A DNA stretch of 51,782 bases from a virus (taxonomy: Duplodnaviria > Caudoviricetes). The stretch covers positions 1-51,782 of the IMG/VR virus record IMGVR_UViG_3300020472_000039. One strand, 5' to 3'. This document shows, one piece after another, positions 7,846-33,215 of the stretch. Position numbers and translations under genes: made by a program. Every line of letters starts with the position of its first letter. The stretch's first letter is position 1. The notes under the pieces are model-generated. The model made no database searches. It saw only the letters and a list, made by a program, of their open reading frames with translations, and was not told where the DNA came from.

Positions 7846-9768
7846 ATGCCAAATAAAGTAGCAGATGTAATGGGAACTCTCAATAAAATGATTGAGGGAG
7901 ATATAGCAAAAATTCGTGCTGAGCAACAAGGTGCTTATAGAGGATTAGAGTTATCTTTAAGAGAAAGAGAAGGAGATAGAGCTCATGAATTAGCTTTAAA
8001 AGAATTAGAAGAAAAAGAAAGAGCAAGATTTAAACAGGAAACAGCAGAACTTAATGGTATGGTTACAGCTGCTGAAATTAAACATTCTAATTCTATATAT
8101 GCTCAATTAGAAGGTAGTATAATGGATGGTATTTTTTTAACAAAAGATGGCACAAAATATGATTATACTAAAAAGAATAAAAAGAAATTAGTAGATAAAT
8201 TTAGAGCAGCTGGTTTTCAAGACGCAGAAAGTATGGCAAGATTGTTTATTATGCAATCTCAAGGAACTACTGACGCAAATGGAAATAAAGTAGAAAGCGC
8301 TAACAATGAAAATATAATACAAATTGCTCAAACCTTTGCAACTACATTAGCTGCTGACCCTACTAAAATTAATAGTTTTATTGATGCTGGTATTTTTCCA
8401 GAAAATGAAGCACAATGGTCTTCGCTAACTCAAAACCTAAATCAAATACTTACTTTAAGAGATACTGGACTTCAATTACAAGAAGAATTAATGGGATTAA
8501 CTCGAGGAGATTTAGAATACGATAGAGATTATCATGGTATATTTTGGGATATGGGAATGGGTCAAGCGCCTCCTGGATACGAAAAAGGAAGTGCAAGTGA
8601 AGGTATGGCTGGAACTGAAACTGGAGATAGAGTTGATATTAGAGACCCAGATAAACCGCCTTCATCATTATTTGCAGAGTATAACCAAAATCACGGTGAT
8701 TATACATTGAATAATATGAAATATTTGCTTACTCAAGAAGTAGGCAATAATCCTTCACATAGAAAGAATTTAATGAAACTTGTAACTGAAAATAGTCAAT
8801 ATTTAGAAGACGATTACATATTTATGCCTATAAGCTTTGGAATGGATGATATGGGAGACGATAGAAGAGCTATTGCCAATCAAACTAAGGAAAATGTAGA
8901 TACTTTATCAGACCGAATGAAAACTGAAATAGAAATAATATCGAGGTTAGAAAGTAAATTATCTAGCGGTAGAGGAAGTGGTGATGGAGTTGTAGGACAA
9001 CTTAAAGGAACAACTGATACAGAGAAAATGAATATTCATAGGCAAATAGCTGCACATACTGGAAAACTAGCATTATTACAACAAGATTATAAAACACACC
9101 AAGAATTTTCTAATAGGGCTGTACAAGAATCTTATGGATATACTGACGAACAAGGAAGATATTTTCCTGGAGGAGATAAAACTTTAGGAGATTTTATGAA
9201 AGGTGATTACGCTTTTAATTTCTTAGGTATTAACGATGCTATAGAAGCAGCTAAAAAATTTCAGCAAAGTCCTATGGCAGAAGCTTTAGATGCTTACCAA
9301 CCACTTGGAGTTGGGATTAAAGATGTGCCAATTGGTAATCCATTACAAAATGTGCTTTACGGGATGTCACATATATGGAGTGGAGATAGATGGAAAACAA
9401 AAAATATACCAGCTATTAAATCTGGATTAAGATATTTAGATACAGATAGAGATAAAACATTTACCGCTGATTTAAGTGATGTTCCAGGTTCTTTATTTGA
9501 AATAGATTTAAGAACAGCTAACGAAAAAGACGTATATATGGATAAATATTTAGAAAGAGCATATACATCGCAAAGAGAATCAGTTCCTTCTGAATGGTTT
9601 GAAACGAGAGATGAAAATAGAATAGCTGCTAAAAATTGGTATAATCAAAAAGAAGCCACAGATAATAGTGCAATGGAGAGCTTAGAATATATACAAGGTT
9701 TACCATTTAGAGGAACTTCTATTTTAGAGATGTCAGACGTGTTAATGCCTGAAAACACTAATAAATAA
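7846..9768 (+). CDS. internal virion/cargo protein
   Basis: 640-aa helical ORF between the pilot-like gene and the giant RNAP gene. Confidence 0.5.
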   Translation: MPNKVADVMGTLNKMIEGDIAKIRAEQQGAYRGLELSLREREGDRAHELALKELEEKERARFKQETAELNGMVTAAEIKHSNSIYAQLEGSIMDGIFLTKDGTKYDYTKKNKKKLVDKFRAAGFQDAESMARLFIMQSQGTTDANGNKVESANNENIIQIAQTFATTLAADPTKINSFIDAGIFPENEAQWSSLTQNLNQILTLRDTGLQLQEELMGLTRGDLEYDRDYHGIFWDMGMGQAPPGYEKGSASEGMAGTETGDRVDIRDPDKPPSSLFAEYNQNHGDYTLNNMKYLLTQEVGNNPSHRKNLMKLVTENSQYLEDDYIFMPISFGMDDMGDDRRAIANQTKENVDTLSDRMKTEIEIISRLESKLSSGRGSGDGVVGQLKGTTDTEKMNIHRQIAAHTGKLALLQQDYKTHQEFSNRAVQESYGYTDEQGRYFPGGDKTLGDFMKGDYAFNFLGINDAIEAAKKFQQSPMAEALDAYQPLGVGIKDVPIGNPLQNVLYGMSHIWSGDRWKTKNIPAIKSGLRYLDTDRDKTFTADLSDVPGSLFEIDLRTANEKDVYMDKYLERAYTSQRESVPSEWFETRDENRIAAKNWYNQKEATDNSAMESLEYIQGLPFRGTSILEMSDVLMPENTNK

Positions 9769-9773: not shown

Positions 9774-12700
9774 ATGTCAGATACAATTACAGATAAATTA
9801 GCTAAAAGTTTAGCAGATAATGTTTTTGATACTAACCAACAAACTAATGTTGGAAATAGAATACCAAGTATAGATGTATTAAGACAAATGGCATCTACTC
9901 CTTTAGAACCTCAAAATACTATAGAAAAAAGTATGCATCAAGGTTTAGGAAGGTCTATGATGAGAAATACTGGAGACTTTTTAAGAGAAGGTGCTGAAGC
10001 ATTTATAGACACAGCATTATTTAGTGCTCCTAGTGCATTTACAGATTGGGACCCATCAGAAGGCGCAGATACTAGTGCTGGAAAATGGGGTGCTGGTATT
10101 GGTGGTACTGCTGGATTTATTAATCCATGGAAAGCGACAGCAAAAGGACTTGGTTGGGCTACAAGAAAAGGTGCTTCTGCTTTTGGAAAAACTACAACAG
10201 ACGACTTAGTTAAACAATTAGACAAAGTTGTTAAGACATCAACTGCAACAGATAAGCTTGGCAAAACAGTAAAAACAAGCGATGATGGAGTTGAAGCTCT
10301 TAGATGGATGGCTGGAGCTAAAGAAAGCGACAATATTATTTCTACATTCGGCAAGATGGTATCTCACCAATTTAAAGAAAAAATTAAACATTGGAGTCAT
10401 TTAGGCGTAAAACAAAAAGACGATTTTACAAAAATGATTAATGAGGGCTTTGGCGATAGTATTAAAAGAATGGCAAACGCTCAAGGAATGGAAGTTTCAG
10501 AAGAAGCTGTAGAACAAATTAGTCGTAGAATGATGAAAGCTTGGGATAAAGCTGGACAAAATCCTATTGATAACATACAATCTTTAATTGCGGGAGCATT
10601 TCCAACAAGTAAATTAGCTAGTTTTTATGGGCATTTATTTGAAGAAGCTGTAACATTCGCAACAGTAGATAGTATTATGCATGGACTGCAAGTTGCTGGT
10701 GGAAAACAAGACGCAGATTTTGGAGCAGTTGCTAAACACGGATTTATGTTAGGACATGCATTGGGTGTTGTAAGATTTGTTCCAAATATGGGTACTGGAG
10801 AAGCTGGTGTAAGAGGAGGATTTGGTGGTTTATTTAACAGAGATGGTAGAGCAAATTGGGTTCGTTTACTTGCTAATAGTAGAAATTATGCTAGAAAGTT
10901 AGACCCTTCAAAAGAAAGCCATAGAGGTTCTATAGGTATTTTATATAAAACATTTGATGATTTAGGTCGTATACCAAAAGAAGGTGGAGAACATGGTGCT
11001 GCTTCAATTTGGAGACAAGTCAAAACACATATGAATGAATGGTATGCTAAATCAGGAAATAAACAATATGACCCAGGAGCATATACTTATGACCATTTAG
11101 CACATTTAATGAAAACAGGTAGCCCAGAACAGGCTAAAAATATAGCACAAGCTATGCAATTTGTTTTAGGACAAGTAAGCAGTCAAGCAAGAAAAAAATG
11201 GAAACCACAATTCTTAAAAGAATGGGCTAAAGATTTTGCTACTGCTACTCCTCGTATGGGGCTTGGTGGTTTAGTTATGGGGAATGAAGTTATATTTGAT
11301 GAAAATGTTCCATTAGAAGATAAAATTATGACAGTAGGTATTGGTGCATTTTTAATGAGAAGTGGTAAAGAATTACAATATAGAGGAGCAGATGGTAGTC
11401 ATAAAGTAATAGGGAGTTTAAGAGATTTTCCTAGAAAACTTAGAGATTTAAAAGAAACTGCTGATGTAGTAGGGCATAAATTTATGAAAGGGTATCATGA
11501 TGCAAGTGGCGAGGTAGTATATGATATAGACCCACAATGGCGAAAATACATGGAAATGGCTGACAAGACTGTAGAAAAATTTAATGAATTTGAAAATACA
11601 GGGTTTTCTAATGTTGACGAAGCAACTAAGATTGTAAATTTATTAAACACTAGTGCAAAATCAGGAAGAGATAATTCAATTAATAAAGAATTAGAATCAA
11701 ACAGTTCTAGAATTAAAGCGTTAGATAGTCGTTTAGTAGAAATGGAAAAAGAACTTCCAAAAATTACTGTTGGAGATAAAGATTACAATGGTAAAAATCA
11801 AGGAGAGGTAAGACCTGAAGATTTAGCAAAACTATCTGAATCAAAAGAAGCTAAAGAGCGACAAGAACTTTTAGAACAAAATGAAATATTAAAAAGTGAA
11901 AAAGAAACTACTATAGATTTAGGTGATTATAAAATATTTGTTACTAATGATAGTCGTATAAGAAAAGGTGCTAATCAAGGAGCAAAATATCAAAAAAATG
12001 TAGATAAGGTTGTAGAAACTATTTACAATCTTATTAAAGAAAGATTTAGCAAAGCAGATGTAATTGGAAAAGGAAAAAGATTAAAAGAAATTGATGAAAT
12101 GACTACAAAAGAATATGAAATGCTAGAACAAGCATTGAAAGATAATAAGTTAGAAACTACTCGTGATGTACAAGAAATTTTTAGAAAAGCTAATAGAGAT
12201 AATATACAAAATACTTCACGTGATAGAGTTAAAACAGCATTAGATATAATAGATTCTCTTAGAGATGGAAACGGAGATAAGCTTTTTGATGTAGAAGTAA
12301 AACAATTAGACAACGGAAAAAACCAATATACTTTTAGAACAATAAATTATGGAGCGCTTGGTAGAAAATTAACCGATAAAACTAAAGAAGCTCTTGATGA
12401 ATATAATTCATTGCTTCAGATAATAAAAGGTGAAGGTGAGCATATAATTTTAGATGGTAATAAAAGAATAGATTTAGATTCTAAGCATGAAAATGCTAAT
12501 TGGGAAGCAGTTGAAATTGTTATGGAAAATTCTTTACTTGCAATGCAAAAAAATTATGGAATTGATGGTCTACCTAAAACATTAACATATCAAGACGGGT
12601 GGTTGAGAGCGGCTATTGAATCTACAATTATAGATACTCAAATTCATCATAGTGTAAAAACTTTTAGTCGTCATTGGGAAGAGGGCACACAACTTGGGCA

Positions 12701-15700
12701 ATTATTAAAAACAATTTTTAAAGGTTCTATGGGAGGAAGAGGTTCTGATAAAGCAATTGCTGAAATATTTGGTATAGATATGACTATTGCTGATATAAAA
12801 GCAGCTTGGAGTAAAGGTAAAAAATTTAAAATTCAAGGAGGTTCAAAAGAAGATAGAGCGATGCTTAAAGATTTGATAGAAATTATGAATCATATGCCAG
12901 GAGCTGAAACTACTTCGCCAGCACCTACTCCAATAGATGCAAAAATTATTTCTTCAATAACTAAAGCTGATTTAATAAAATTAAAAAACCTTTTAAATGA
13001 AGAAGGTATTCATATACTAAATACTGATACTAGATTTACTACTACAGACTATGCAAGAGAAATTGCTAGACAATTGGTAGGAGATAAATTATTCTTAGGA
13101 ACAACAAGAGATGGGAATAAATTAACTGATAATCATAGAAAAATTATTGAAGTTATGATGCATAAAGGGTTAGTAAATTCAAATTTAACTTTAACTCCTA
13201 TAGGTAGATTATTAAATAATGTATTTGGAAAAGCTTATGATGAAGCGGCAAAATTAGAAAAGTTAAGTGACCCCGCTGAAGCTAAAATAATAATTGACCA
13301 AATGGTTAAAGATAAAAAGATTAGCGTAGAAGAAGCTAATTCTATGTATAAAACATTTGAAGAAATGAATGCGATGAGTGTTCAAGCAGGTTTTTTTGCT
13401 CCTATAACATTTGGAGAAATGTCTAAAACTTATAAAGAATTAGTAGAACCTTTAATTGTTGATAATAAAGGAAACGGTGTTTTAACATTATCAACTATAC
13501 AAACTGCTAGTATGGGTAGAGGTGAAATGAGATTACTTCTTGATTCTCTAATGATGATGAAAGATTCTACATTCCAATCAGATACGCATACTTTTGTGAA
13601 AGCATTGCAAGAATCTATTTTAAATCAAAGCGGAAAACCAACTAATGTAAAAAATAAACTTTTAAATTATATGTTTGCAAAAGGTAAAGTAGACCCTGCT
13701 AGAGCATATTTATTAGCTAGAGAATATAAGATATGGGATAGCAAAAATGAAAAAATTGATTTAGATAAATTAAAAGATAGTGAATTGCAAGAAACTTTTA
13801 AAAGGTTGCAAAGTGAAATAGAATCAAATTATAGCAATAGTTATATTGATAATATTAATCAAAGAGTTAAAGAATTAGAATACCAAGCTAAAGATAGAAG
13901 TAATAATGATAGTAAAACTATACAATTTAATAGTTGGATGGAAAAATGGAGTCTTAAAGATACACCATTTGAAAAATCTATGATTACAATAACAGAAAGT
14001 AAGACAACTTCTGAAAGATTATTTACTACGTTGGAATCAGAATATCTTGCTAAAAATAAAACAAGAGCTGATTTTATGAAAGATTTAGAATCAGCATTAG
14101 TAAAAGCTAATCCAGGTATTAATGTAAATGAAGTTAATGCTCACATAACAAAATGGTTAATAGATAGACAAAATACTGTTATGATTCCTGTGATTAAGAT
14201 TAATCAATTTTCCCCTACTATGTCTACATTTAAAGAAACTAAAATAAGAAAATCTTTAATGTTAGAAGAATTGTTAGGAGTTATAAGTCCTGATACAAAA
14301 ATAGCTATGTTCCCTACAGATGGTCATTTATTTATGAAGGGAGAACGTGGAAGATATGGAGATTTAACAGATACTGGAAATCTAGCAACATTACAAGGTT
14401 TAATATATACCGCATCTGGTCAAGGGAATCTTTGGGGAGCAAATAATGCAAGTCCTAATGCTTCTAGTAAATTAAATGCTTTATCTTTTATAAACAGTGA
14501 TATGGTTGTATATAGATATGGTAATTCTCGACATGTATTTGGTTTAGATGCTCGTCAAAGTAATTTAGATTATATGGCTGGTTTATGGGTTCGTGATTTA
14601 GCTAGAAGAACAAAGTTAGATAAAAATGATGCTGAGTATTTATCTGAAGCAAATTTTGATTCTAAAATGAAAAATGACGGTAGGCTATATGGAGAAATAA
14701 GAATACTACGTAAAAACCCTAAAACAGGTATTCAACAAGAAATTGCTGTTAATGCAAAAGATATAAAAAATACTGACCAAATTATATTATCTCCACAAAA
14801 TGCTAGTAAAACATGGAATGCTAACAATTTAGAACAAAGAGTGAAAAATATTTTAGATGATATGATTTTTGGTAAATTGCTTCCTGATGTTTATTGGAGT
14901 CAAAAACTATGGAAAGCCGAAGGTGCAGCATTTCTTGCTATGATGAAACGTACTCCATTAACTCACAATATATCTGCAAATAGATTTAGTTCTGAAGTAA
15001 TTAGAGAAATAGCTGCTGGTTGGACAAAAAGCACTACTAATTTCAGACTACCTGGAGATAAAGGAAGAGATAGAAGAACAGAAGTTAGGAATTTTATTGA
15101 TTCATGGGGAGCAGGTAAACAAAAATTTGTAGTTATTAGAGATGAAGTTGATAGTGGTTTTGGTTGGAATGAAAAAGGAGTATCTGAATCATATAGTGTT
15201 AATAAAAAATTAATAGACCAAAAAACAAGAAAAATAGAAGATTTAAAAAAAGGTAGAGATGAAGTTAATAAACTTGTTAATATTAGCAAAGAAGAGAAAG
15301 CTACGAAATTAGAAGACTATAACCAAATTATTAAACAATTAGAAAATGAAATTAATACTTTACGTAATAACAAAGATGCAAGTAGTGAAAATGGTATATT
15401 TATTATAAGAGACGATGGAGCATTTCAAGCTATGTCAATTTTAGGCGGTGAATATAATTCTATAGAAGTTGGTGGTATTAAACCAACTATACATGGAATA
15501 GATAGTAAAGGAAATTCTTTTGTAATTAAAACTTCATTTCAAAAGAAACTAGAATATGAACAATTTTTTAAAGACAATCCAGATGTTATGGGTATTACTT
15601 TTGCATCAAGTGTAAAAAAAGTTGGTGCTGATTATACAGATTCATTTAAAGGAAGAATGTTAACAGGCGAAGAATTTAATGGAGGAAAAATAGGAACTAT

Positions 15701-18700
15701 TACTGATAGCAATAAGAAAATTACATTAAGACCTGAACATGTATCTCTTACCGCAATTAAAGGGCGTAAAGATAAAGCTACTATAACTATTGGTAATTCT
15801 AACCATATTGTGGACCGTACAGCTAAAATTGATTTTTGGGACCAATATTATGCTCCTTCAATAAAAGCACTTCAAAAAAATCTTGGAGATAGAAATGATA
15901 TTGGTCGTAGTAATGAAAGAATTGCTGATGCAAGGAGAATATTAGGTTCACAATTTGAAGAAAAAAGCTCATCATTTGATATGTCTGAAGGACAATTATC
16001 TGTTATAGACCAATGGTTGAAAGTAGGTGGAGACCCTAGTATGTTTGAAAGACAATATAACGATGCTATAAAGTCTTATTATTTAGACCCTATTTTATCT
16101 CCAAAGGTAAATGGAGGTCAATCAGTTTTATCTTCTGATACTAAAGGAGAGCTTATTAATACAGTTATATTAGATGGTAAAATATGGGATACTGGTGAAG
16201 TTTTTCTTAGTCGTCAAGAAGCTAAAAAAGAAGCAAAGATAGATAGAATTACTATTGCAGAAAGAAATTCAGCTGGATATGATAGACACTATTCTATAAA
16301 TCAAAATAAAAAATTAAAAAATGCTTTTATAGATGCAATGGAAGCTAAAGGAAAAAGAGAAGCAAAATACACATTACAAGATTTTGTAGATTTTGTTAAA
16401 GTTTATTCTGAACAAGCAGGGAAAAAACATAAGTATCAAGTATTAACTGCTGTAGAACGTGTACCTCATGTAAAAGAAAGTAGTGTTATGCTTGTAGGGA
16501 TTAAAGATTTTAGAAATGCATCAGAAGGAAATATTGTAATATTAAATAACGCTGATGTAAAAAGAGCGGCTGAAGGAGATTATGATATTGATATAGCTAA
16601 TATTTTTTGGGAATCTCCATCTAGTGTAGTTAAAGAATATGCTAGAGGTAGAGGAGGTATTCAAGATTCAAGAACTTTTGAAATGGATTCAGAAAGTAGC
16701 TCCGCATCTGGTTTACGTTTTGATAACGCTAAAGATATTAACGAATATAACTCTCGTCTTCATGATGCTGATATGGTTAAAGGAGCAGCAATGAATGTTT
16801 CTAGAATATTGCAATGGTTACAATCTTTAACAACTACTCACAATTATGTAGCTGCAAAAGAAGGTTATTTAGATGCTAAAACAGGAGAACTTAGTCATTA
16901 TACGGATGGAACTTATAAACCTAATTTTGTTATAAAGGCTGGAGAGCAAACTTATCTTGTATTAAAAGAAGGTAAAGAATTAAAAGATGTTCAACAATTA
17001 ATTGCAGATTACATACAATCTTCTTTAGATGCTGTTGGTGGATATAATATGAACAAGGTTACTATAGATAATATGTGGAGAGATTTGTTATATAGACCTG
17101 AAACTTCTATTTTCAATGTTATGAATGTAAATCAGGTTGCTATTAAAAATAGTGGAACAACAAAACCGATATTAGAAAAAACTACTACCACAGATTTATC
17201 TCTTGAAGGAAATAAACAAGTTAGAAAAATACTTGATGGTATAATTGACCCTTATAAAGATATGCTTAAACTTTCTAATAAAATTTATCAAGATGGTAAA
17301 GGTGAAAGTGTAAGTTGGAGTGCATTAATTACAGGTATTCAAAATTCAAATAAAAATTTTAGATATTTAGGTTCTAAAAAATGGTATAAAGATAATTATC
17401 TTAAATATGAAAAGGGTAGAGATAGCATAATAAATTTTCACGATTTAGGTAAAAATGCGGCGTTAGATAAAGCTGCTTCAAATAATGCTAATTTACCAAT
17501 GTACGATAGAGTGTTAGCAAATGTAATGCATCTTCATAATGTTACTATGAATCCAAACAAAAGTATTACTCTTTCTGAGCCATTTAGAGATTCATTTGAA
17601 TTATTAATGACAACAGAAACTGCGAAAGATGCGTATGATGCAGTTAAAAAAGAATTAACTGATTCTTATCAATTGACAGATTTTATTAATCAAGCGCAAA
17701 AAGAATTAAATGAATTACATGAATATAAAGAAAAATTCAGAGATTATAAAACTAGAGATAGAATATTAAAATACAGCATTAAACCATTAGAAAAAAGATT
17801 AAATTATTTAAAAGACCAAATTTCTATAGAGTTTAAAGATTATGGAAAAATTAGAGCTACAAGCAATGTAGAAGCAAAAACAGATTTAAGGAAAGAAACA
17901 AAAAAAAGAGATGGCAAAAAATATGAACAAAATAAAAAAATTGTAGATAATATTATTGAAAGATATGCCCAAAATCTTCGTGCTGAAAAATTGCAAAAAT
18001 TAAAAGAACAAGGAGACCCTAGATTGCTTACTAAAGATGAAATGAAAGCAGTTAATAAAAAAGCTATAGAGATGTTTCTTGAAAAAGGTTTTTATATTGA
18101 ACCAACAGTTACTAATGAAATGATTAAATATATTGCTATTAATGATGTATTTGGTAGACTTAATGTTATGAATCATAATGAATTAAAATTATCTCAAGGT
18201 AGATTTACTGACATTAATAAAGAAATATCTCAGGTAATAAAAGAATTTGGAGAAAGTGTACACGATTTAATGGATGTTCATAAAGAAGTATTGAATTGGG
18301 ACCATTTATATGAAAACACGTTTCAAAAATTAGATAAAATTGCAAGAGACCATGAAAGATTGTTTGAAAGTGAAGATATGGCATATCAATGGATATTAGC
18401 AAAAGTAGCTGCTCCAGGATATGAACCAAACACATTTGTACAATATGGTGGTGCATTTTTTCAAGCTCCTAAAATGAAAGGAGTAGATAAATATATTAAT
18501 TTAGGATTTAGATGGTATATGAGACAATATTCTGAAAAAGGAGGTTTTTCTGGGTTTAATCAAGTAAAAATGTCAAATTTATTTAGACCAATAGCACAAC
18601 AATACAATCAAGCTTGGTGGAAAATGAATGGTATGAATACTGGAGTAAGAGAAGAATTTAAAGATTCAATAAATCAAAATGATTCATATTATTTTCAACC

Positions 18701-19115
18701 ATTTGAATTTACAAAAGGAACTCAAAGACAAGAATTTTTAAATCATATATTCCCTAATGCTGAAAGTTTCTTAGGAGTAGATTATTCTAGAATTGATGCT
18801 TATCAACAAATGAATGATATGCTTGGTTCAGGGTTAATAAGAGATATAGTATTAAGCGAACAACATTTAGATGCTCCTTATATTATGAAAGCTGGAGCTG
18901 AAAGATATAAATATATTGATTCTATAAAAGATATGCACGAAGGAGAAGGAATGGGTGGAGGTGCAGCTATAACTAGAAGAGGGTTTAATGATGTATTTCA
19001 TGACCCTTATACTTTAGATAGTCGTAAACCAGTTCATGATAGAAGTTGGGAAAAGCATAAGAATGTAGTAGATTTGGTTGAATTTGAAGTTAAAAAATCT
19101 ATGGAGGATTGTTAA
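9774..19115 (+). CDS. giant virion-associated single-chain two-barrel (DPBB) RNA polymerase, crAss-like type
   Basis: ERVPH...GNIVILN...AAEGDYDID aligns with beta-prime NRAP...NADFDGD; upstream ENG, GGIKP, IKTS, SSVKK fit the beta-side barrel; located in the cargo operon. Confidence 0.8.
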   Translation: MSDTITDKLAKSLADNVFDTNQQTNVGNRIPSIDVLRQMASTPLEPQNTIEKSMHQGLGRSMMRNTGDFLREGAEAFIDTALFSAPSAFTDWDPSEGADTSAGKWGAGIGGTAGFINPWKATAKGLGWATRKGASAFGKTTTDDLVKQLDKVVKTSTATDKLGKTVKTSDDGVEALRWMAGAKESDNIISTFGKMVSHQFKEKIKHWSHLGVKQKDDFTKMINEGFGDSIKRMANAQGMEVSEEAVEQISRRMMKAWDKAGQNPIDNIQSLIAGAFPTSKLASFYGHLFEEAVTFATVDSIMHGLQVAGGKQDADFGAVAKHGFMLGHALGVVRFVPNMGTGEAGVRGGFGGLFNRDGRANWVRLLANSRNYARKLDPSKESHRGSIGILYKTFDDLGRIPKEGGEHGAASIWRQVKTHMNEWYAKSGNKQYDPGAYTYDHLAHLMKTGSPEQAKNIAQAMQFVLGQVSSQARKKWKPQFLKEWAKDFATATPRMGLGGLVMGNEVIFDENVPLEDKIMTVGIGAFLMRSGKELQYRGADGSHKVIGSLRDFPRKLRDLKETADVVGHKFMKGYHDASGEVVYDIDPQWRKYMEMADKTVEKFNEFENTGFSNVDEATKIVNLLNTSAKSGRDNSINKELESNSSRIKALDSRLVEMEKELPKITVGDKDYNGKNQGEVRPEDLAKLSESKEAKERQELLEQNEILKSEKETTIDLGDYKIFVTNDSRIRKGANQGAKYQKNVDKVVETIYNLIKERFSKADVIGKGKRLKEIDEMTTKEYEMLEQALKDNKLETTRDVQEIFRKANRDNIQNTSRDRVKTALDIIDSLRDGNGDKLFDVEVKQLDNGKNQYTFRTINYGALGRKLTDKTKEALDEYNSLLQIIKGEGEHIILDGNKRIDLDSKHENANWEAVEIVMENSLLAMQKNYGIDGLPKTLTYQDGWLRAAIESTIIDTQIHHSVKTFSRHWEEGTQLGQLLKTIFKGSMGGRGSDKAIAEIFGIDMTIADIKAAWSKGKKFKIQGGSKEDRAMLKDLIEIMNHMPGAETTSPAPTPIDAKIISSITKADLIKLKNLLNEEGIHILNTDTRFTTTDYAREIARQLVGDKLFLGTTRDGNKLTDNHRKIIEVMMHKGLVNSNLTLTPIGRLLNNVFGKAYDEAAKLEKLSDPAEAKIIIDQMVKDKKISVEEANSMYKTFEEMNAMSVQAGFFAPITFGEMSKTYKELVEPLIVDNKGNGVLTLSTIQTASMGRGEMRLLLDSLMMMKDSTFQSDTHTFVKALQESILNQSGKPTNVKNKLLNYMFAKGKVDPARAYLLAREYKIWDSKNEKIDLDKLKDSELQETFKRLQSEIESNYSNSYIDNINQRVKELEYQAKDRSNNDSKTIQFNSWMEKWSLKDTPFEKSMITITESKTTSERLFTTLESEYLAKNKTRADFMKDLESALVKANPGINVNEVNAHITKWLIDRQNTVMIPVIKINQFSPTMSTFKETKIRKSLMLEELLGVISPDTKIAMFPTDGHLFMKGERGRYGDLTDTGNLATLQGLIYTASGQGNLWGANNASPNASSKLNALSFINSDMVVYRYGNSRHVFGLDARQSNLDYMAGLWVRDLARRTKLDKNDAEYLSEANFDSKMKNDGRLYGEIRILRKNPKTGIQQEIAVNAKDIKNTDQIILSPQNASKTWNANNLEQRVKNILDDMIFGKLLPDVYWSQKLWKAEGAAFLAMMKRTPLTHNISANRFSSEVIREIAAGWTKSTTNFRLPGDKGRDRRTEVRNFIDSWGAGKQKFVVIRDEVDSGFGWNEKGVSESYSVNKKLIDQKTRKIEDLKKGRDEVNKLVNISKEEKATKLEDYNQIIKQLENEINTLRNNKDASSENGIFIIRDDGAFQAMSILGGEYNSIEVGGIKPTIHGIDSKGNSFVIKTSFQKKLEYEQFFKDNPDVMGITFASSVKKVGADYTDSFKGRMLTGEEFNGGKIGTITDSNKKITLRPEHVSLTAIKGRKDKATITIGNSNHIVDRTAKIDFWDQYYAPSIKALQKNLGDRNDIGRSNERIADARRILGSQFEEKSSSFDMSEGQLSVIDQWLKVGGDPSMFERQYNDAIKSYYLDPILSPKVNGGQSVLSSDTKGELINTVILDGKIWDTGEVFLSRQEAKKEAKIDRITIAERNSAGYDRHYSINQNKKLKNAFIDAMEAKGKREAKYTLQDFVDFVKVYSEQAGKKHKYQVLTAVERVPHVKESSVMLVGIKDFRNASEGNIVILNNADVKRAAEGDYDIDIANIFWESPSSVVKEYARGRGGIQDSRTFEMDSESSSASGLRFDNAKDINEYNSRLHDADMVKGAAMNVSRILQWLQSLTTTHNYVAAKEGYLDAKTGELSHYTDGTYKPNFVIKAGEQTYLVLKEGKELKDVQQLIADYIQSSLDAVGGYNMNKVTIDNMWRDLLYRPETSIFNVMNVNQVAIKNSGTTKPILEKTTTTDLSLEGNKQVRKILDGIIDPYKDMLKLSNKIYQDGKGESVSWSALITGIQNSNKNFRYLGSKKWYKDNYLKYEKGRDSIINFHDLGKNAALDKAASNNANLPMYDRVLANVMHLHNVTMNPNKSITLSEPFRDSFELLMTTETAKDAYDAVKKELTDSYQLTDFINQAQKELNELHEYKEKFRDYKTRDRILKYSIKPLEKRLNYLKDQISIEFKDYGKIRATSNVEAKTDLRKETKKRDGKKYEQNKKIVDNIIERYAQNLRAEKLQKLKEQGDPRLLTKDEMKAVNKKAIEMFLEKGFYIEPTVTNEMIKYIAINDVFGRLNVMNHNELKLSQGRFTDINKEISQVIKEFGESVHDLMDVHKEVLNWDHLYENTFQKLDKIARDHERLFESEDMAYQWILAKVAAPGYEPNTFVQYGGAFFQAPKMKGVDKYINLGFRWYMRQYSEKGGFSGFNQVKMSNLFRPIAQQYNQAWWKMNGMNTGVREEFKDSINQNDSYYFQPFEFTKGTQRQEFLNHIFPNAESFLGVDYSRIDAYQQMNDMLGSGLIRDIVLSEQHLDAPYIMKAGAERYKYIDSIKDMHEGEGMGGGAAITRRGFNDVFHDPYTLDSRKPVHDRSWEKHKNVVDLVEFEVKKSMEDC

Positions 19116-21892
19116 TGGGTTGTTTACCAAGAGATAAAAGTACAGAATTAAGACAACAAGAATATCTGGCAATTGCAAAAAAGTTTCAGGAAATACCTGA
19201 AATAAAACAATTAGGACCTCACGCTGTTAATGTGTTTAGGACTATAAGAGATACAGTTGTAGGAGATTTTATGCCAGAAACTGGTATTCCTAGTGAAATT
19301 CAATTAGCAAAACTTAGAAAAGCTATAGATAGAGAAGTAGGACAGATGAATAGAGGTCGTGGTTTTATTGCTGAATGGGCATATTTGCCAAAAGAAATAT
19401 TTGAAGATGTTGGATTTGTTAGAGATTGGTATAGAAGTGTAGAAAGAGCTAACAATGCTTATAAAGGAAATTCTCAACGTTTTCAATCTCAGCTTAATGA
19501 TTTATATGTATTTTTAAAAGATGCGGCTTTTGATATAGGAGGTAAAAGCTCTTTAAGAGATTTAGTTCCAGGAGCAAGAACAAAAGCTCAAAGAGATTTA
19601 GCTAAAATGAATGCTAATTATTTGAAATACAAAAGACAAGGAATGCATAGAGAAGCTAGAAAGTATTATAGAGATTTTATTGAACCATTTGTAACTAAAG
19701 GCGAAGGGCGTGTATTCAAGATATTTCATGAAATTGCTTCTGCTCCTAAATCTAATAATGGATTTAAAAAAGCTATACAAAAACATAAAGGCACTATATC
19801 AGACAAAGCATTAAACAATATAGCGAATGCAGCTCAAGTTTGGAGAAATAAAATACAACCTAAATCAGTAGAACTAATGATAAAAGGTTTAGAAAATTAT
19901 AAATATGCATTTACTAGCAATAAAAATCTTCTTGGAAAATTTAAAAATTATGAAAAAGCTTTATCTGTTATAGATAATTTGGTTCGTAGATATAGTAGTG
20001 GAGAACTCCAAAAAGATGGATATTTTCCTATTATATCATTAGATGTTATGCCTACTCTTGCAGAAGCTTCTTCTCATCTGTTCCCAGGATATGGTAAAGG
20101 AGCTAAAAATGAATCAAATTTTGATAGAGGTGTAGATTTATTAAAAAACTTAGAATCAATGGTAGATAAAAATCTATACATTCATAAAAATTTAAAAGAA
20201 CAAAGCAAAATGAATGAAAATATAAATTATAATGTTTTACCTTTAATGGATTCTTATGCAAAGTCTGCAGCAAGATTTAATTATGTAGCATTTAATAATA
20301 ATAAATATATGGAAGTTACAAAAGATTTATGGGATACATTACAAAGAGGTAAAGATACTGGAAGCGAAAATTCTCAATTAGATAAAAAATTAAGATTTTT
20401 AGAAGGTTATATATCTGATACTCATTCTATGTTAGTTGGAACAAAAAATAGAGATTCACATCTAACAAATAATATCGCAAGAACTATTACTGCATTTCAG
20501 TTTGCTAGTAAATTAGGTTTAAATATTCGTGGTGCTGTTCGTAATTCAACACAAAGTTTATATAACTATGTTTATTTTGGACATAAAGGAATTAAAGAAG
20601 CAGGAACATTATTATCTGATGCTCAAATGAAAACAAGAGTTCAACAAGGATTAGAAAACAATGGTACATTATTTGGTGAAATACCTGAAATTTATGCAGA
20701 CTTTCAGCCTAAAATAGAATACGATGCTAAAACAGGAACATATAGAGAAAAGTTAGATTTATCTGCAAGTGATATGTTAGCCGAAAGTATGTCTCAAGTT
20801 GCTGCAAAATTAGGTAAACCTATGCAATGGGTTGAAAATAATATTAATCGTAGATGGACATTTCAATTAGGATATGCGTATGCTTGGAAAGCAGATAGTG
20901 GAAATAAATCATCTTTATATGGTAAATTTGATTATAAATTAAAAAGAGAATTAAAAAAAGAAAGAAGAAAAGAATCTATTAAAGATTTAAAAAGCGAAAG
21001 TGCTAAACGTAATTACAAAATATTTGAAAAGAATGATGCTACTGAATATGAATTTAGATTTGAACAATGGAGAAGAGAACGTGCTGAATTAGAAGCTAAT
21101 AATATTGTTAATCTTCTTCATTATGATTATGCTATGACAGCAAAATCTAAAATATTATCTACAAAAGTGGGTTCAATATTAGGTCAATTCCAACATTATG
21201 GTATTTCATATTTTAATTTGCAAAGAAATATTATAAGAAAAGGAAAAGATGATGTCTTTACTGGAAATTGGAATGGTACAGATGCTTATAGAATGTATAG
21301 ATTAGGTACGCTTCACTTAGCTGTTGCTGGTTTATTTGCTCCATTATTGAATATAGACCTTACAAATCTTGTACAGAACGATACTATAGAGCGTATTAAA
21401 TCATATCATGACGTTGTTCTTGGAGACGAAGAAACTAAACAAAGAGCATTCTTTGGTAAAGGTCCTATTATTGGAACATTTGGTGGTCCTTTTATATCAG
21501 ATATGATTAATCTAGGAAGTCTTGCTGGTATACAAGGATTTGAAGAAGATGATTTTCTTTCTTATTTATTACCTATGCAAGATGATTTAGACCCTGGTTC
21601 TTCGGAATGGAAACGTAAATTATTATCTACTTTAAATACTCAAGCTGCAAGAGCTGTATATAGTACATATCCTAAATGGAGAGAAGGTACTAATCTTGGA
21701 GTATTGGTACAGAGTGAATTAGGATTGTTCCCAGATAAGAATACTAGAGAAATTAGAGATTTTTACAATAAAAAGTTTCCAGCCCTTGGACCTGACCCTG
21801 AAAAGAAAAAGAAAAAGAATAAAAAAGAAACTCCTAAATTTTCTGCAAATCAAGGAGTTCTAGATGCTTTAAATACTTTAGCTGGAAATTAA
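19115..21892 (+). CDS. large internal virion/ejection protein
   Basis: TAATG coupling gives ATG 19115; KLGLNIRGAVRN and ILGQFQHY motifs resemble large polyvalent/ejectosome-type proteins. Confidence 0.55.
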   Translation: MGCLPRDKSTELRQQEYLAIAKKFQEIPEIKQLGPHAVNVFRTIRDTVVGDFMPETGIPSEIQLAKLRKAIDREVGQMNRGRGFIAEWAYLPKEIFEDVGFVRDWYRSVERANNAYKGNSQRFQSQLNDLYVFLKDAAFDIGGKSSLRDLVPGARTKAQRDLAKMNANYLKYKRQGMHREARKYYRDFIEPFVTKGEGRVFKIFHEIASAPKSNNGFKKAIQKHKGTISDKALNNIANAAQVWRNKIQPKSVELMIKGLENYKYAFTSNKNLLGKFKNYEKALSVIDNLVRRYSSGELQKDGYFPIISLDVMPTLAEASSHLFPGYGKGAKNESNFDRGVDLLKNLESMVDKNLYIHKNLKEQSKMNENINYNVLPLMDSYAKSAARFNYVAFNNNKYMEVTKDLWDTLQRGKDTGSENSQLDKKLRFLEGYISDTHSMLVGTKNRDSHLTNNIARTITAFQFASKLGLNIRGAVRNSTQSLYNYVYFGHKGIKEAGTLLSDAQMKTRVQQGLENNGTLFGEIPEIYADFQPKIEYDAKTGTYREKLDLSASDMLAESMSQVAAKLGKPMQWVENNINRRWTFQLGYAYAWKADSGNKSSLYGKFDYKLKRELKKERRKESIKDLKSESAKRNYKIFEKNDATEYEFRFEQWRRERAELEANNIVNLLHYDYAMTAKSKILSTKVGSILGQFQHYGISYFNLQRNIIRKGKDDVFTGNWNGTDAYRMYRLGTLHLAVAGLFAPLLNIDLTNLVQNDTIERIKSYHDVVLGDEETKQRAFFGKGPIIGTFGGPFISDMINLGSLAGIQGFEEDDFLSYLLPMQDDLDPGSSEWKRKLLSTLNTQAARAVYSTYPKWREGTNLGVLVQSELGLFPDKNTREIRDFYNKKFPALGPDPEKKKKKNKKETPKFSANQGVLDALNTLAGN

Positions 21893-22068: not shown

Positions 22069-22509
22069 TTATTCCTCCGTTAATGCGTACATTCCGATAC
22101 AGATTGCGTCTGCATTCTTTAATGTAACTTTTTGATTATTACCTGCCCAATCTTGAGCAACTTTCTTAAAATATCTTTTTCGTTCTGCATAGTCTTTTGG
22201 TATATCTCCTCCAATGAACTGTTGCCATACCTTAGGCAATACATCTACTCTCTGTAACTTTAATGATGCTATAATACCTAACCAAACACCATAATTTTCT
22301 CCAAAAGTAAAAGCACCTCTTTCGTAAGGTCTAGCCCACACTCTTTCTATGTATACTTTAGGTTTTTTACGACCTATAGCATTTCTTATAACTTTAACCA
22401 TATCTTCAGGTTCCCTGGAGGTAGGACAATTGGTAGTGAATTGGAGGTTCATCGAGTCGAAGAAAGCAACTGCCCCACTCCATCCAGGGTCTATAGTTAT
22501 AATTTTCAT
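22069..22509 (-). CDS. RuvC-like Holliday junction resolvase
   Basis: IDPGWSGA, VYIERV, FTFGENYG, PKVWQ and ADAICI motifs. Confidence 0.85.
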   Translation of the reverse strand: MKIITIDPGWSGAVAFFDSMNLQFTTNCPTSREPEDMVKVIRNAIGRKKPKVYIERVWARPYERGAFTFGENYGVWLGIIASLKLQRVDVLPKVWQQFIGGDIPKDYAERKRYFKKVAQDWAGNNQKVTLKNADAICIGMYALTEE

Positions 22510-23858
22510 TTATTCATCATTTGTATAGCTTCTGTTCTGTCAAAGTATATACTACACTTATCTCCATTGAAGCCCATATTATATGAACCCAATTGACCAT
22601 ATCTAGCTTTTTGACATATGATTTCAATCTCATACCTATCATTGTCTCTATTATCTACCGCATAAGGATAGTATACAAAGAACGCCGCTTCAGCAGTTTG
22701 TTCAATTACACCACTTTCTGCAAAGTCTGATAGTTTTGGTCTAGGGTCTAATCGTCTTTCAATTTCTCTATTAAGCTGCGATACCAATATAGCACTACAC
22801 TTAATTTTCTTACAAATCCACTTATAGTCAAGCATTATATCTTCTATTTCAAACCTTCTGTCCTTATTCTTTCCGTCTGTACGAATAAGTTGGATATAAT
22901 CATCGAGGATTACATCTGGTTTTTCCTTTCCTATCTCTTTCATTGCATCTGCAAGAGTTTTACAATCATCTAACATTATTAGATTCTTATACTTTTCACC
23001 CAAAGCTTCTCTTTTAAGATTAATTTGAGTTATCTCTTTATCTATATTACTAGCTTTTCTAATCTTTTCATAACTAAACTCTTGAAATTCCATTACTAAA
23101 ATTTTCTTCATCATTTCAACATTAGTCATTTCACGATTAAACAACATAACTTTCTTACCTTGTTCTAGTAATCGTTTAACAATATTGATAACCATAGTAG
23201 TTTTACCATGTCCTGGTCTACCACCAATAACTGTTATCTCACCTCTAGTCATACCACCAGCTGCTTTATCTAGCTGTTCAATGCCAAAGGGTATTAAGTT
23301 ACTACCTTCTTTTAACGCTTCTAGTGTATTAGCTAATATATCTTTAGTTTCAACTACTTTACTTGGAGCAATATCTTTTAACTCTTGAACTATTTTTTCA
23401 TGCTGATGTAATACTTCAACAATATCATCCGTATTTTGTAAAGTTAAGTTATAAAGTATTTGGGAACTCTTTACTGCTTTACGTTGTATAAACTTATACC
23501 AAATATTCTTAGCGTAAGTCTCAGCGTTTGCAGTAGTAGGAACTCCATTAGCTAATCCAGTTAAATAATAAGTAGTTAGTGTATGGTCTGTAACATTATC
23601 TTTAATATCTCCGAATACAGTAACTGTATCAATAGGAACATTGTTTTTATATAATCTGTTAAATGAGTTCCATAGTTCTTGATGTTTACTTGTATAAAAT
23701 GCATCAGCTTCTTTAATAACTGATTTAGCTTTTTCAAAGATTTCATCGCCTTCTAATAAAATACTACCTAATAAGGCTATCTCTGCTTCTTCATTCTTGG
23801 GCATAGGTTCCAGTCCATTTGTCTGTTTAAGCTCTTTATTGTCTGTTAATGGTTTCAT
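22506..23858 (-). CDS. dnaB: replicative DNA helicase
   Basis: N-terminal EAEIALLGSILL; Walker A GGRPGHGKT; DYIQL; SQLNREIE; PKLSDFAESGVIEQTA. Confidence 0.95.
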   Translation of the reverse strand: MKPLTDNKELKQTNGLEPMPKNEEAEIALLGSILLEGDEIFEKAKSVIKEADAFYTSKHQELWNSFNRLYKNNVPIDTVTVFGDIKDNVTDHTLTTYYLTGLANGVPTTANAETYAKNIWYKFIQRKAVKSSQILYNLTLQNTDDIVEVLHQHEKIVQELKDIAPSKVVETKDILANTLEALKEGSNLIPFGIEQLDKAAGGMTRGEITVIGGRPGHGKTTMVINIVKRLLEQGKKVMLFNREMTNVEMMKKILVMEFQEFSYEKIRKASNIDKEITQINLKREALGEKYKNLIMLDDCKTLADAMKEIGKEKPDVILDDYIQLIRTDGKNKDRRFEIEDIMLDYKWICKKIKCSAILVSQLNREIERRLDPRPKLSDFAESGVIEQTAEAAFFVYYPYAVDNRDNDRYEIEIICQKARYGQLGSYNMGFNGDKCSIYFDRTEAIQMMNK

Positions 23859-23866
23859 AATACCTC

Positions 23867-24688
23867 CTATTCTTTAAATAGACTAATTTGCTTTTCTTCT
23901 GGTACATAATTTGTAATGACCAGTTCTATCTTCTTTTCTTCGCTATGTAATTGACCAGTATACTTAATAGGTATTTCAATTATTCTCCAATGTTTGTACA
24001 TATCCCAAATTGCAGGACTATTATCATATGATAGCATAAACTTTCCCCCGCTATCATCAATTTCATGGCACATAGCACATAAATCAATATGGTCATTCCA
24101 ATTAAACGAATGTATATAGTAATCATTTCGTTTAGTTGCTGCAACATAAGGAGGGTCTAAATACCAGACATCTCCTTCTTTTGGTTCATACTTGTCAATT
24201 AACTTTCTAAAATCCATATTCTCAATGAATGTGTCATTTAGTTTTTGTCTGCTTAGTTCTAAGTCGTCTAATATCTCATCATTCCATTTAGCAACGCTGC
24301 TTAATGGTAAGAAAGGCGTTTTGTTGAATGCTGTCTTTATGATAAAGAAATATTCTGCTGCTCTCTTAACATCTGGAATATCTATCTTGTTTTCGGCGTG
24401 TATCTTCTTTCTATAAGTCTCGTGAAGTGTTCTTGATAACAATATGTGTTTAGCATAGTGTTTAAATTTATCGAAATCCTCCGCTATTGAAATATACAAA
24501 TTTATTACATCATTATGCAAGTCATTTAATATGTTTATCTTAGCTTTATCTTTACGAAAGAACATACTTCCTCCCCCAAAGAATACTTCAATATATCTAT
24601 CGTGTCTAGGTAACATTTTCACTAGCTGTTTACTTAGTGTAAACTTACCTCCGTAATATGGAAATACTGTAGGACAATCATTCTTCAT
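23867..24688 (-). CDS. D12-class (Dam-family) N6-adenine DNA methyltransferase
   Basis: YYGGK, YIEVFFGGGS, LND and YLDPPY motifs. Confidence 0.92.
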   Translation of the reverse strand: MKNDCPTVFPYYGGKFTLSKQLVKMLPRHDRYIEVFFGGGSMFFRKDKAKINILNDLHNDVINLYISIAEDFDKFKHYAKHILLSRTLHETYRKKIHAENKIDIPDVKRAAEYFFIIKTAFNKTPFLPLSSVAKWNDEILDDLELSRQKLNDTFIENMDFRKLIDKYEPKEGDVWYLDPPYVAATKRNDYYIHSFNWNDHIDLCAMCHEIDDSGGKFMLSYDNSPAIWDMYKHWRIIEIPIKYTGQLHSEEKKIELVITNYVPEEKQISLFKE

Positions 24689-24960
24689 TTTTTGGTCCTT
24701 CCTCTATCATATGTTTTCCAATATATTAAATCATGTGCATTTTCATAATATTTAAACATCCATTTATCTACAACGCCACCAGCGTAATCTGGATGATATT
24801 CATTATTTAAGCACATATTAGACATCATTTGATGATATACAGCTGTATAAAACATTCTTTCATTATGATTATCACCAATTATCCACCAAGGGTTTTCTCC
24901 ATTTTCATATATATCACATAGTTCTTCATATTTATATCTCTTCATTAATCCCTCCAACAA
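24685..24960 (-). CDS. hypothetical protein (likely start at MKRYKY)
   Basis: tightly packed ORF in the early arm. Confidence 0.6.
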   Translation of the reverse strand: MLEGLMKRYKYEELCDIYENGENPWWIIGDNHNERMFYTAVYHQMMSNMCLNNEYHPDYAGGVVDKWMFKYYENAHDLIYWKTYDRGRTKK

Positions 24961-25181
24961 TCATTACATAAAGCATCACCATTTTTATGTTGACTCCAAT
25001 ATAATTGGTCTTTTTTATTCATACATTCCCACCAATTTAAATCGTCTGAATACTGTACAACTCCACATTCATCACAAGTATTTAAATCAGTCATATCTAA
25101 AACATAAGCAACTAATTCAGATATATGTTTTGTATTATCACTTAAAGCATTCAAACCGACCATTTCGTTTTCATCAATCAT
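24945..25181 (-). CDS. small Cys-rich, probably Zn-binding protein
   Basis: CDEC...CNDC. Confidence 0.65.
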   Translation of the reverse strand: MIDENEMVGLNALSDNTKHISELVAYVLDMTDLNTCDECGVVQYSDDLNWWECMNKKDQLYWSQHKNGDALCNDCWRD

Positions 25182-25521
25182 CTTTGTCTCCTTTTAATTC
25201 ATTATATAAATTAATAAATGAATCATTGCTTTCTACACCAACTGGTAAACAATCAGAAAAAAGTCCAGCCTTCTGAAATCCTTTTCTACGTGCATCACTC
25301 ATACCAACGTGTAAAGCACCTGGACCATTTCCTTCGTCATCCATTCCAACAAAGAAAACATCACCTTTATCTGTTTTAAAACAAAGCCCAGTACCTTCTT
25401 CTGGATAATCTTTATCCCATTCTTGCCACCAAACATCTGTTATAGTTCTTCTTTTTAATAGCGTTTGTGCTGATTGATACCACATTTTAGTTCTATCGTA
25501 TTTTTTTTGTAAACTTTCCAT
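25174..25521 (-). CDS. conserved phage hypothetical protein
   Basis: MDDEGNGPGALH motif; GGAGG RBS. Confidence 0.7.
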   Translation of the reverse strand: MESLQKKYDRTKMWYQSAQTLLKRRTITDVWWQEWDKDYPEEGTGLCFKTDKGDVFFVGMDDEGNGPGALHVGMSDARRKGFQKAGLFSDCLPVGVESNDSFINLYNELKGDKDD

Positions 25522-25731
25522 TTAACCCTCCATATGTTTAAGTCTTAAATGTTCATCTCTTAAGTGATTTAATTCAGATATATCATCTTCTATTTCACCT
25601 AATCTTGACATAAATTCATCTGTTATACTTTCTGCGTCTAAATAATATCCTGTTTCTTCGTCAAAAGAATAGTATACATCTACACTGATATTATCATCTA
25701 TCTTAGTTTTTTTTATTTCTGAGCTTATCAT
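25522..25731 (-). CDS. acidic hypothetical protein
   Basis: ATGA overlap with the upstream gene. Confidence 0.65.
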   Translation of the reverse strand: MISSEIKKTKIDDNISVDVYYSFDEETGYYLDAESITDEFMSRLGEIEDDISELNHLRDEHLRLKHMEG

Positions 25732-26096
25732 AACTCAGCCTCAAACCAACAGTCACCATTTTCTTTAATGCAATTTCTAATTTGTATTCCTAATTCTAAT
25801 CTTGCATAATTAACTAGTAATATTCTAACATGTTCTTCATCTATCTTAAGATATTTTGCTAACATATTATCGTTATATCCACCTGGTCTTTTAAAGAATT
25901 TATTCATCTTTGTTAAAAATCCACGTAAATTTTTCTTACACTTTCTAATACCTTTTTCTGCTAATTCTAAATCAGCTGCATGGTATTGTAAATAAGAAGG
26001 GTCACATTCTGTTGCTCCAAAGTGTTCTCCATCATCTGAAGATTGTACAGCAAACCAGAATTTTCCTTCTATGTCTCCGTGATAATATCTACCCAT
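25728..26096 (-). CDS. conserved phage hypothetical protein
   Basis: MGRYYHGDIEGKFWFAVQSS N-terminus; TAATG coupling. Confidence 0.75.
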   Translation of the reverse strand: MGRYYHGDIEGKFWFAVQSSDDGEHFGATECDPSYLQYHAADLELAEKGIRKCKKNLRGFLTKMNKFFKRPGGYNDNMLAKYLKIDEEHVRILLVNYARLELGIQIRNCIKENGDCWFEAEL

Positions 26097-26227
26097 TATT
26101 TTTCTCTCTTTCTTCTTATTGAGCTTATTTGGTTATAATACATATAGTCAAATCCAAGCTCATTTAGTTTATCTATTAGCTTTGCTATTTTTTCTTGTAA
26201 ATCAAATGCTTTTTCAGCGTCACTCAT
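26096..26227 (-). CDS. 43-aa hypothetical protein (MSDAEKAFDL...), not in the ORF track
   Basis: AAGGAG RBS; fills the gap with overlaps at both ends. Confidence 0.6.
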   Translation of the reverse strand: MSDAEKAFDLQEKIAKLIDKLNELGFDYMYYNQISSIRRKREK

Positions 26228-26492
26228 TTTTATGCTCCTTCAATTTATCATTAACTTTTTTAACGTTTTGGTAAAGTTCTTGATATTTATTATCATGGAA
26301 GATAATATTATTTTTATTCAAGTGTCCCTCGTGTTTAATACTCCAAGTAGTATCTTCTTTAGTATCTTCTATTTCCTCTTCTGTAGGTATATGGGGCATA
26401 GGATACCTATAATTTTCCATAAGACCTTCAATCTCTTCTTCTGTATAACCTAACTCAGTAAGGTCAAGCAGTATCTTTTTGAAATTTCCCAT
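26220..26492 (-). CDS. hypothetical protein (start MGNFKK)
   Basis: GAGGAGG RBS before ATG 26492. Confidence 0.65.
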   Translation of the reverse strand: MGNFKKILLDLTELGYTEEEIEGLMENYRYPMPHIPTEEEIEDTKEDTTWSIKHEGHLNKNNIIFHDNKYQELYQNVKKVNDKLKEHKNE

Positions 26493-26918: not shown

Positions 26919-26940
26919 ATTTTTTTCTCCTTTTTAAGTT

Positions 26941-28613: not shown

Positions 28614-28615
28614 TT

Positions 28616-31825: not shown

Positions 31826-31826
31826 C

Positions 31827-32051: not shown

Positions 32052-32075
32052 CTAAGTTCCTCCGTATTATATAGT

Positions 32076-32804: not shown

Positions 32805-32820
32805 TGATTCCTCCGTCTAC

Positions 32821-33214: not shown

Positions 33215-33215
33215 A

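Follow-up and report, generated by a model that had tools for sequence, protein, structure and literature searches.

RNA polymerases built on two double-psi beta-barrels use an aspartate triad to bind the catalytic Mg2+ and lysines to contact the incoming nucleoside triphosphate (NTP). To our knowledge, virion-borne enzymes of this kind have been shown experimentally in very few phages, namely phi14:2, P23-45 and the phiKZ/AR9 group. The type represented by gp66 of phi14:2 is treated as a hallmark of Crassvirales, and the polymerases of eukaryotic RNA interference (RNAi) have been proposed to derive from phage two-barrel enzymes. Gp66 is carried in the virion, delivered and responsible for transcribing early genes; its Asp-to-Ala mutants are dead, each Asp being needed (bioRxiv 10.1101/2020.03.07.982082, in part; sources so marked are cited for the portions of their text that were available). 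Many phages encode single-subunit two-barrel polymerases (PMC7281927, in part), and 23 two-barrel families have been counted; P23-45 has one virion and one non-virion enzyme, and in crAss-like and N4-like phages virion polymerases are fused to large proteins of unknown function (PMC10770324, in part). Here, we describe a giant gene, P0001, in IMG/VR virus record IMGVR_UViG_3300020472_000039 (Duplodnaviria; Caudoviricetes). The stretch of DNA analysed, termed the window, is the whole of this record: 51,782 bases, linear, 97% complete by CheckV and 31.8% G+C. The gene is an open frame at 9774..19115 on the plus strand, encodes 3113 amino acids (aa) and fills 18% of the genome. Taken as a whole, it is probable, if well short of certain, that aa ~1850-2540 form a single-chain two-barrel double-psi beta-barrel RNA polymerase with a core homologous to gp66, and that the protein is a late product packed into the virion that transcribes the early arm.

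The catalytic segment of P0001 lies in the second, beta-prime-like barrel (16458..16592, plus strand), as placed by conservation and profile alignment (hhalign), and reads R2229-x-P2231 followed by E-G-D2269-Y-D-I-D2273. A preliminary description of the window, made from the sequence alone, had listed this and several upstream motifs, and its motif coordinates and the 3113-aa length all proved correct. ERVPH is found at aa 2228 (16455-16469), AAEGDYDID begins at aa 2265, and DYDID spans aa 2269-2273 (16578-16592); upstream are ENG at aa 1872 (15387), GGIKP at aa 1900, IKTS at aa 1918 and SSVKK at aa 1945. The spacing of about 40 residues claimed between ERVPH and DYDID also holds, with 40 residues from R2229 to D2269. 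DYDID is the only DxDxD in the entire protein. By itself, however, a DxDxD is no evidence, because 66% of 5000 protein shuffles contain one (1.17 expected at 7.2% Asp); an RxP with DxDxD 30-45 residues downstream occurs in 1.5% of the 5000 shuffles. The observation exceeds chance because of conservation among homologues and the predicted fold.

Conservation was assessed in a large family. A word-indexed search with aa 1750-2450 identified eight relatives of 2814-3108 aa, all of them metagenomic. From aa 1866-2320 a seven-row profile (A1) was then made, with which 1.84 billion cluster representatives were searched; 175 proteins scored E<=1e-3, of which 121 reached E<=1e-10 and 51 reached E<=1e-30. 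In total, 156 family proteins were realigned to the profile, and in each column only those with a residue there were counted. D2269, D2271 and D2273 are each kept in all 126 homologues that cover the site, as is P2231, and R2229 is kept in 119 of the 126. Equally constrained are the lysines of the first, beta-like barrel (15480..15617, plus strand, again placed by conservation and hhalign): K1903 of GGIKP (120/120), K1919 of IKTS, which is followed by T1920 (123/123), and K1948 of SSVKK (123/124). The preliminary description was therefore right to single out these three motifs. It went astray in listing ENG with them among the motifs that fit the second barrel, for ENG is not conserved: homologues have VNG, VNS, VDS or YNG at this position, next to a nearly invariant Ser1870. 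Nor is DYDID a "Tyr variant" within its own family, where the second motif residue is Tyr in 89 of the 126 proteins, Phe in 24, His in 10 and Asn in 3. The fourth motif residue is not Gly; its eight commonest states (I 42, V 31, A 23, L 6, T 6, Y 4, F 4, S 3) account for 119 of the 126. Because the three Asp, the Pro and the three Lys are strictly kept in proteins that are 15-30% identical overall, we infer a working active site rather than a relic, and hence a catalytically competent enzyme, in which D2269, D2271 and D2273 would bind the catalytic Mg2+ and K1903, K1919 and K1948 would contact the NTP.

The fold predicted around these residues is that of a two-barrel polymerase. For aa 1750-2750, an AlphaFold2 model computed with 31 homologues reaches a mean predicted local distance difference test score (pLDDT) of 79.3 and a predicted template modelling score (pTM) of 0.77. 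Blocks score mostly 85-95 up to model residue ~790 (~aa 2540), with the first-barrel region at 84-93, and the confidently modelled core accordingly runs from aa 1750 to ~2539 (15021..17390, plus strand). Downstream of the motif, a modelled helix at aa 2319-2351 (16728..16826, plus strand; model residues 570-602) is a candidate bridge helix; its Gly2337 is invariant in 68/68 sequences. A Foldseek search of the Protein Data Bank (PDB) gave 469 matches at E<=10, of which a single one reached E<=1e-3: phi14:2 gp66 itself (6vr4_A, E 1.1e-7, probability 1.00). For the PDB and for BFVD, the best 50 matches of each were examined. The remaining listed PDB matches, with E between 2e-3 and 5e-2, are entries of multisubunit RNA polymerases from bacteria, archaea, poxvirus and phage AR9 and of Pol I, II, III and IV; their matched chains are read as the largest subunit. 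Like these cellular beta-prime/Rpb1-type subunits, P0001 would carry its catalytic Asp-triad loop in a double-psi barrel. Unlike the cellular enzymes, it appears to hold both barrels in one chain, its fourth motif residue is not Gly, and no sequence-level match to them was found. In BFVD, 26 matches reached E<=1e-3. The best are unnamed proteins (top E 4.9e-37, TM-score 0.68), presumably of the same family, and others at this threshold come from the uncultured crAss phages cr118_1, cr50_1 and cr4_1, from cr111_1 ("Putative RNA polymerase") and from gp66 (S0A2C3).

The link to crAss polymerases is also evident at the level of sequence profiles. A profile of six crAss cores (A4) was made from gp66 aa 950-1700, cr55_1, PhiCrAssBcn25, cr85_1, cr111_1 and one Kolpuevirus. 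Against it, a 68-row profile of the P0001 family (A2) aligns with a probability of 92.5% and an E of 4.9e-7 over 55 columns, laying ERVPH...EGDYDID on YRIPte...GsDFDvDK. Against gp66 alone, the same register comes out on top (gp66 1316-1382, E 0.11); with a seven-row profile, gp66 gave no significant alignment (probability 1.8%), and the 68-row profile against the crAss profile was needed. The first barrel matches the crAss core profile at E 5.9e-4 and a probability of 29%, a weak pairing that nonetheless sets K1903, K1919 and K1948 in order on gp66 K1012, K1027 and K1065. GGQ at the end of the connector (aa 2114-2116; 16113..16121, plus strand), which is invariant in the 7/7 A1 sequences, pairs with N-G-G-S of gp66 (1234-1237) in two non-significant hhalign runs and serves as a collinear anchor only. 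The anchors K1903, K1919, K1948, GG2114, R2229 and D2269 thus follow the same order as K1012, K1027, K1065, GG1235, R1322 and D1361 of gp66. Spacing from the first lysine is 16 residues to the second (15 in gp66), 45 to the third (53), 211 to GG (223) and 326 to R (310), and R and D are 40 residues apart (39 in gp66).

With gp66 (6VR4) and its Crassvirales orthologues, P0001 therefore shares a predicted single-chain arrangement of beta-like barrel, connector (here ~200 aa) and beta-prime-like barrel. Common to both are a DxDxD whose fourth residue is not Gly and which is followed by Lys or Thr, an RxP 39-40 residues before the Asp triad and three similarly spaced first-barrel lysines. Unlike gp66, P0001 has 3113 rather than 2180 aa, with ~900 more residues ahead of the first barrel, and its family has predominantly Tyr in place of Phe as the second motif residue. 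The preliminary description had proposed a divergent member of the gp66 class, and the fold match to 6VR4, the profile match and the retention of DxDxD in every homologue covering it support this placement. Taken together, sequence comparison and modelling in our judgement establish the two-barrel polymerase core as far as computation goes. P0001 would also share its superfamily and single-chain layout with QDE-1 and with gp96 and gp64 of P23-45, and with gp96 the fusion to a giant virion protein, if the virion status suggested here by the neighbouring genes is correct (PMC10770324, in part); gp96, unlike P0001, is fused to the tape measure of a long-tailed phage.

The same results bear on the idea that the motif is a chance occurrence in a protein that is no polymerase, or that P0001 is a virion polymerase of the N4 type. 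Besides the frequency of DxDxD in shuffles, the size and context of the gene do recall the giant N4 polymerase: gp50 (~3500 aa) is ejected by a short-tailed phage, a strategy that P0001 would share by analogy (PMC13434306, in part). However, the catalytic fold of gp50 is T7-like and unrelated, fold and profile both point to the two-barrel class, and no T7- or N4-like polymerase is among the 50 PDB and 50 BFVD matches listed. As far as these tools reach, the idea is refuted, and we give it next to no credence.

At least 175 clusters at 50% identity make up the family of P0001, and the longest contigs of sampled members measure 42-61 kb. Among the best 150 of the 175 relatives, most complete proteins have 2686-3181 aa and a few distant ones 3.2-4.5 thousand aa (the largest 4466 aa), the remainder being fragments. 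Sampled members carry no annotation beyond "hypothetical protein", and gp66 is likewise without a Pfam or PHROG family. A tblastn search with aa 1701-2700 found no match in 50,697 deposited phage genomes. In IMG/VR, a locus search with the single sequence returned nothing and one with the profile returned five loci. Although an injected single-chain two-barrel polymerase is of a kind already known, the lineage that carries this one and its protein family are not described in the literature searched. That literature describes no gp66-like polymerase in ~50-kb non-crAss phages, and the family may be among the 23 of PMC10770324 (in part).

By its hallmark genes, the phage is not a crassvirus. Its capsid belongs to SU10_MCP / phrog_1328, its portal to P22_portal / phrog_156 and its large terminase (TerL) to phrog_38, whereas the families of phi14:2 are Crass_capsid / phrog_11589, phrog_6547 and phrog_6681, so that 0/3 are common to both. 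BLASTP gave no significant match to phi14:2 for either portal or capsid. Within the 50,697 deposited genomes, the capsid has no match, the portal has nine weak partial ones, and TerL is at best ~24% identical to the TerLs of marine short-tailed phages. We take the phage itself to be short-tailed, because it has a P22-like portal and because none of the window genes was recognised as belonging to a family of tape-measure, sheath or tail-tube proteins. The view that modules other than the polymerase are not typical of Crassvirales is therefore well founded. The companion claim, that the gene lies outside the usual crAss layout, is not, for the gene order is that of a crAss phage in miniature. 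In both, TerL, portal, capsid and tail genes lead to a giant protein and a large partner, encoded where the late arm ends (3ʹ) and converges on the replication arm; in phi14:2 the order is TerL, portal, capsid, tail, g067, g066 (the polymerase) and g065. Differences from phi14:2 include a genome of half the size, the failure to recognise a DNA polymerase or primase, and a partner protein unrelated to gp65.

In the window, the late plus-strand genes run from the small terminase (TerS) and a nuclease through TerL, portal, capsid and tail fibres, and the late arm resumes across the record ends with genes of unknown function, then the giant gene and lastly the gene for a 927-aa protein, which ends at 21892. 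The giant gene lies in the 3ʹ end region of this operon, where it starts 5 nt after the upstream open reading frame (ORF) and overlaps the downstream one by 7 nt. The upstream gene (7846..9768, plus strand, same operon) encodes 640 aa without a PHROG or Pfam family, and in four related loci (L010, L011, L013 and L014) the giant gene likewise follows an ORF of 430-625 aa. The downstream partner (19109..21892, plus strand) is conserved across related loci, with a same-strand ORF of ~900 aa in 4/4 of the IMG/VR loci that have downstream flank (959 aa in L010, 901 in L012, 900 in L013, and 603 in L014, where it is cut). Aligned over its whole length, the partner shares 23% identity with its L013 counterpart (E 7e-33). 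In the Atlas it falls into unnamed viral clusters, in one of which 28% of the members carry LPD39. By BLASTP, it has no similarity to phi14:2 gp65. As a separate observation, its gene occupies the position of gp65, termed an "RNA polymerase associated protein".

This setting suggests virion packaging and early-gene transcription, on the strength of the late-operon position, the coupling to neighbouring genes and the analogy with gp66, which likewise is a giant late product at the 3ʹ end of the structural arm beside another large protein of unknown function. The location "among ejection genes" and the "pre-packaged" polymerase of the preliminary description are plausible in the same measure, none of the neighbours having a recognisable family. 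A two-barrel polymerase that is real but unpackaged, and made in the cell for middle or late genes like the non-virion enzymes of P23-45 and phiKZ-like phages, would fit the fold and motif evidence just as well, since that evidence says nothing of location, and P23-45 has enzymes of both sorts (PMC10770324, in part). Yet a gene that comes last in a late structural operon, translationally coupled to its neighbours, would yield its enzyme too late to start the programme unless it were carried over. Moreover, the 1750 extra N-terminal residues resemble virion-fused forms, the position matches that of virion-borne gp66, and no second polymerase gene was seen among the window genes. An unpackaged enzyme is for these reasons unlikely.

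In the preferred reading, then, the giant protein would be made late together with the structural genes, packed into the capsid and ejected with the DNA. Before any phage gene expression, the polymerase would transcribe the converging minus-strand arm (22069-36286), and host RNA polymerase would then take charge of middle and late transcription. Packaging, ejection or template handling might be the role of the N-terminal 1750 aa and of the 927-aa protein. The minus-strand arm encodes a resolvase, DnaB, a methyltransferase, a DUF932 protein, a Sak annealing protein and a Cas4-like nuclease. At its head, ~2 kb (34245-36419) hold only three short ORFs of 61-95 aa, and two overlapping G+C-rich, terminator-like hairpins lie between the diverging arms on the minus strand (36308-36336). 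A search there for a shared promoter or hairpin motif gave only short repeats at chance level. The window contains no tRNA genes and no terminal repeats.

Library scans of the window genes recognised no DNA polymerase or primase in this 97% complete record, even though DnaB, Sak, the Cas4-like nuclease and the resolvase are present. The two-barrel enzyme might for that reason serve replication as well or instead, by making primers or even DNA, for which there is a precedent in PolD, a two-barrel DNA polymerase (PMC7281927, in part). Against such a role, the best structural relatives of P0001 are RNA polymerases and not PolD, and several small ORFs of the window are unassigned. Many small phages, moreover, depend on the host replisome. 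We regard a replicative function as quite unlikely.

Several results weigh against an injected, gp66-like polymerase. Global superposition of the model on 6VR4 is poor (TM-score 0.26 by query, root-mean-square deviation 28 Å over 1050 columns), and because global TM-scores are low, the 6VR4 match is to be read as local and piecewise. The preliminary description had proposed a Foldseek comparison with both gp66 and QDE-1; gp66 is the top match, whereas neither QDE-1 nor P23-45 gp96 is among the 50 PDB matches listed. Profile similarity to the crAss enzymes is significant over 55 columns only; hhalign gave no significant result for the connector (E 0.059) or for the stretch beyond the motif (E 0.33), in which a bridge helix and trigger loop would be expected. 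Searches of Pfam, PHROG and PDB sequences with the whole protein or the A1 profile returned nothing usable, the sole PHROG match being the function-less phrog_13581 (E 2.8e-4). For the middle region (aa 650-1849), none of 37 Foldseek matches in the PDB reached E<=1e-3 and none was to 6VR4, so that this low-confidence model revealed no likeness to the first ~950 aa of gp66, which include its cleft-blocking domain. Finally, the proposed division of labour with the host enzyme finds no echo in a sigma-70 promoter scan, which gave 80 sites against a shuffle mean of 91.5.

Two stretches ahead of the polymerase core were examined. The N-terminal ~560 aa (9774..11453, plus strand) are Gly-rich and strongly conserved, with peaks at aa 251-350 and 451-550 that equal the level of the active site. 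No 19-residue window in them exceeds a Kyte-Doolittle value of 1.6, and a membrane-spanning N-terminus is unsupported because the maximum is 1.12 (aa 318-336). In the Atlas, the N-terminus matches unnamed viral clusters and gives weak leads, below 0.9, to LPD22, LPD14 and P22 gp16. The middle region (11721..15320, plus strand) is mostly helical in its low-confidence AlphaFold2 model (pLDDT 65, pTM 0.41). Its best phage matches, neither of them significant, are internal core proteins of E1004 (E 0.73) and T7 (E 3.9). A full-length hhalign alignment at very low mact was meaningless end to end, and because no likeness was found outside the core, homology with gp66 is shown for the polymerase core only.

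With ~2400 of 3113 aa lacking any likeness to polymerases, and with core proteins as the top, if non-significant, phage matches of its middle region, P0001 might be imagined as an ejection or internal-core structural protein that keeps an inactive, polymerase-derived domain as a scaffold. However, an inactive scaffold would hardly account for catalytic Asp, Pro and Lys residues held strictly in such divergent proteins, and we consider it very unlikely.

A bolder version of the preferred reading joins all these features into one polypeptide that would act as ejection conduit and polymerase at once, sited at the cell envelope and pulling in the genome by transcription. Its ejection module would comprise the N-terminal 560 aa and ~1200 helical residues. 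It would further synthesise primers through which the host replisome takes over the phage DNA, since DnaB is present without a primase or DNA polymerase, and it would stand for a second branch of RNAi-polymerase ancestors. The conjunction of so many elements is doubtful. If true, it would describe a minimal "bring your own polymerase, borrow the rest" life style in ocean phages of ~50-60 kb, and a second, independent branch beside the crAss phages as a possible source of the eukaryotic enzymes.

More generally, phages that are not related to the crAss phages and are much smaller probably inject a transcription enzyme of their own as well. The same polymerase core appears in a separate lineage whose capsid, portal and terminase are of other families, whose genome is half as large and in which no replication polymerase was recognised. 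This would widen the pool of phage enzymes that are candidate ancestors of the eukaryotic RNAi polymerases and would offer a small genome in which to work out the minimal needs of an injected two-barrel polymerase. In an abundant group of ocean phages, moreover, the largest gene, so far annotated only as hypothetical, would gain a function.

Polymerases of this kind vary in size and domain content. In the crAss phages cr55_1 (L004) and cr273_1 (L009), the annotated polymerase-core genes span 13.7 kb and 17.4 kb, so that the sizes of crAss forms start at 2180 aa and go well beyond 5000 aa. The core of cr273_1 was left out of A4 as a seventh member, its matched stretch having two in-frame stops; these may reflect stop-codon recoding, which has been reported in crAss-like phages (PMC7886860). 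Within the P0001 family, 4/9 close homologues (P0003, P0004, P0007 and P0008) have an insertion of ~150 aa with a conserved "RPEHPGDxG" between GGQ and the catalytic barrel, an insertion that the window protein is without. The distant member P0122 (4466 aa) contains a segment resembling the DNA recombination mediator DprA (aa 1541-1661; phrog_768, E 1.9e-9), so that some relatives appear to fuse further DNA-handling domains to the polymerase.

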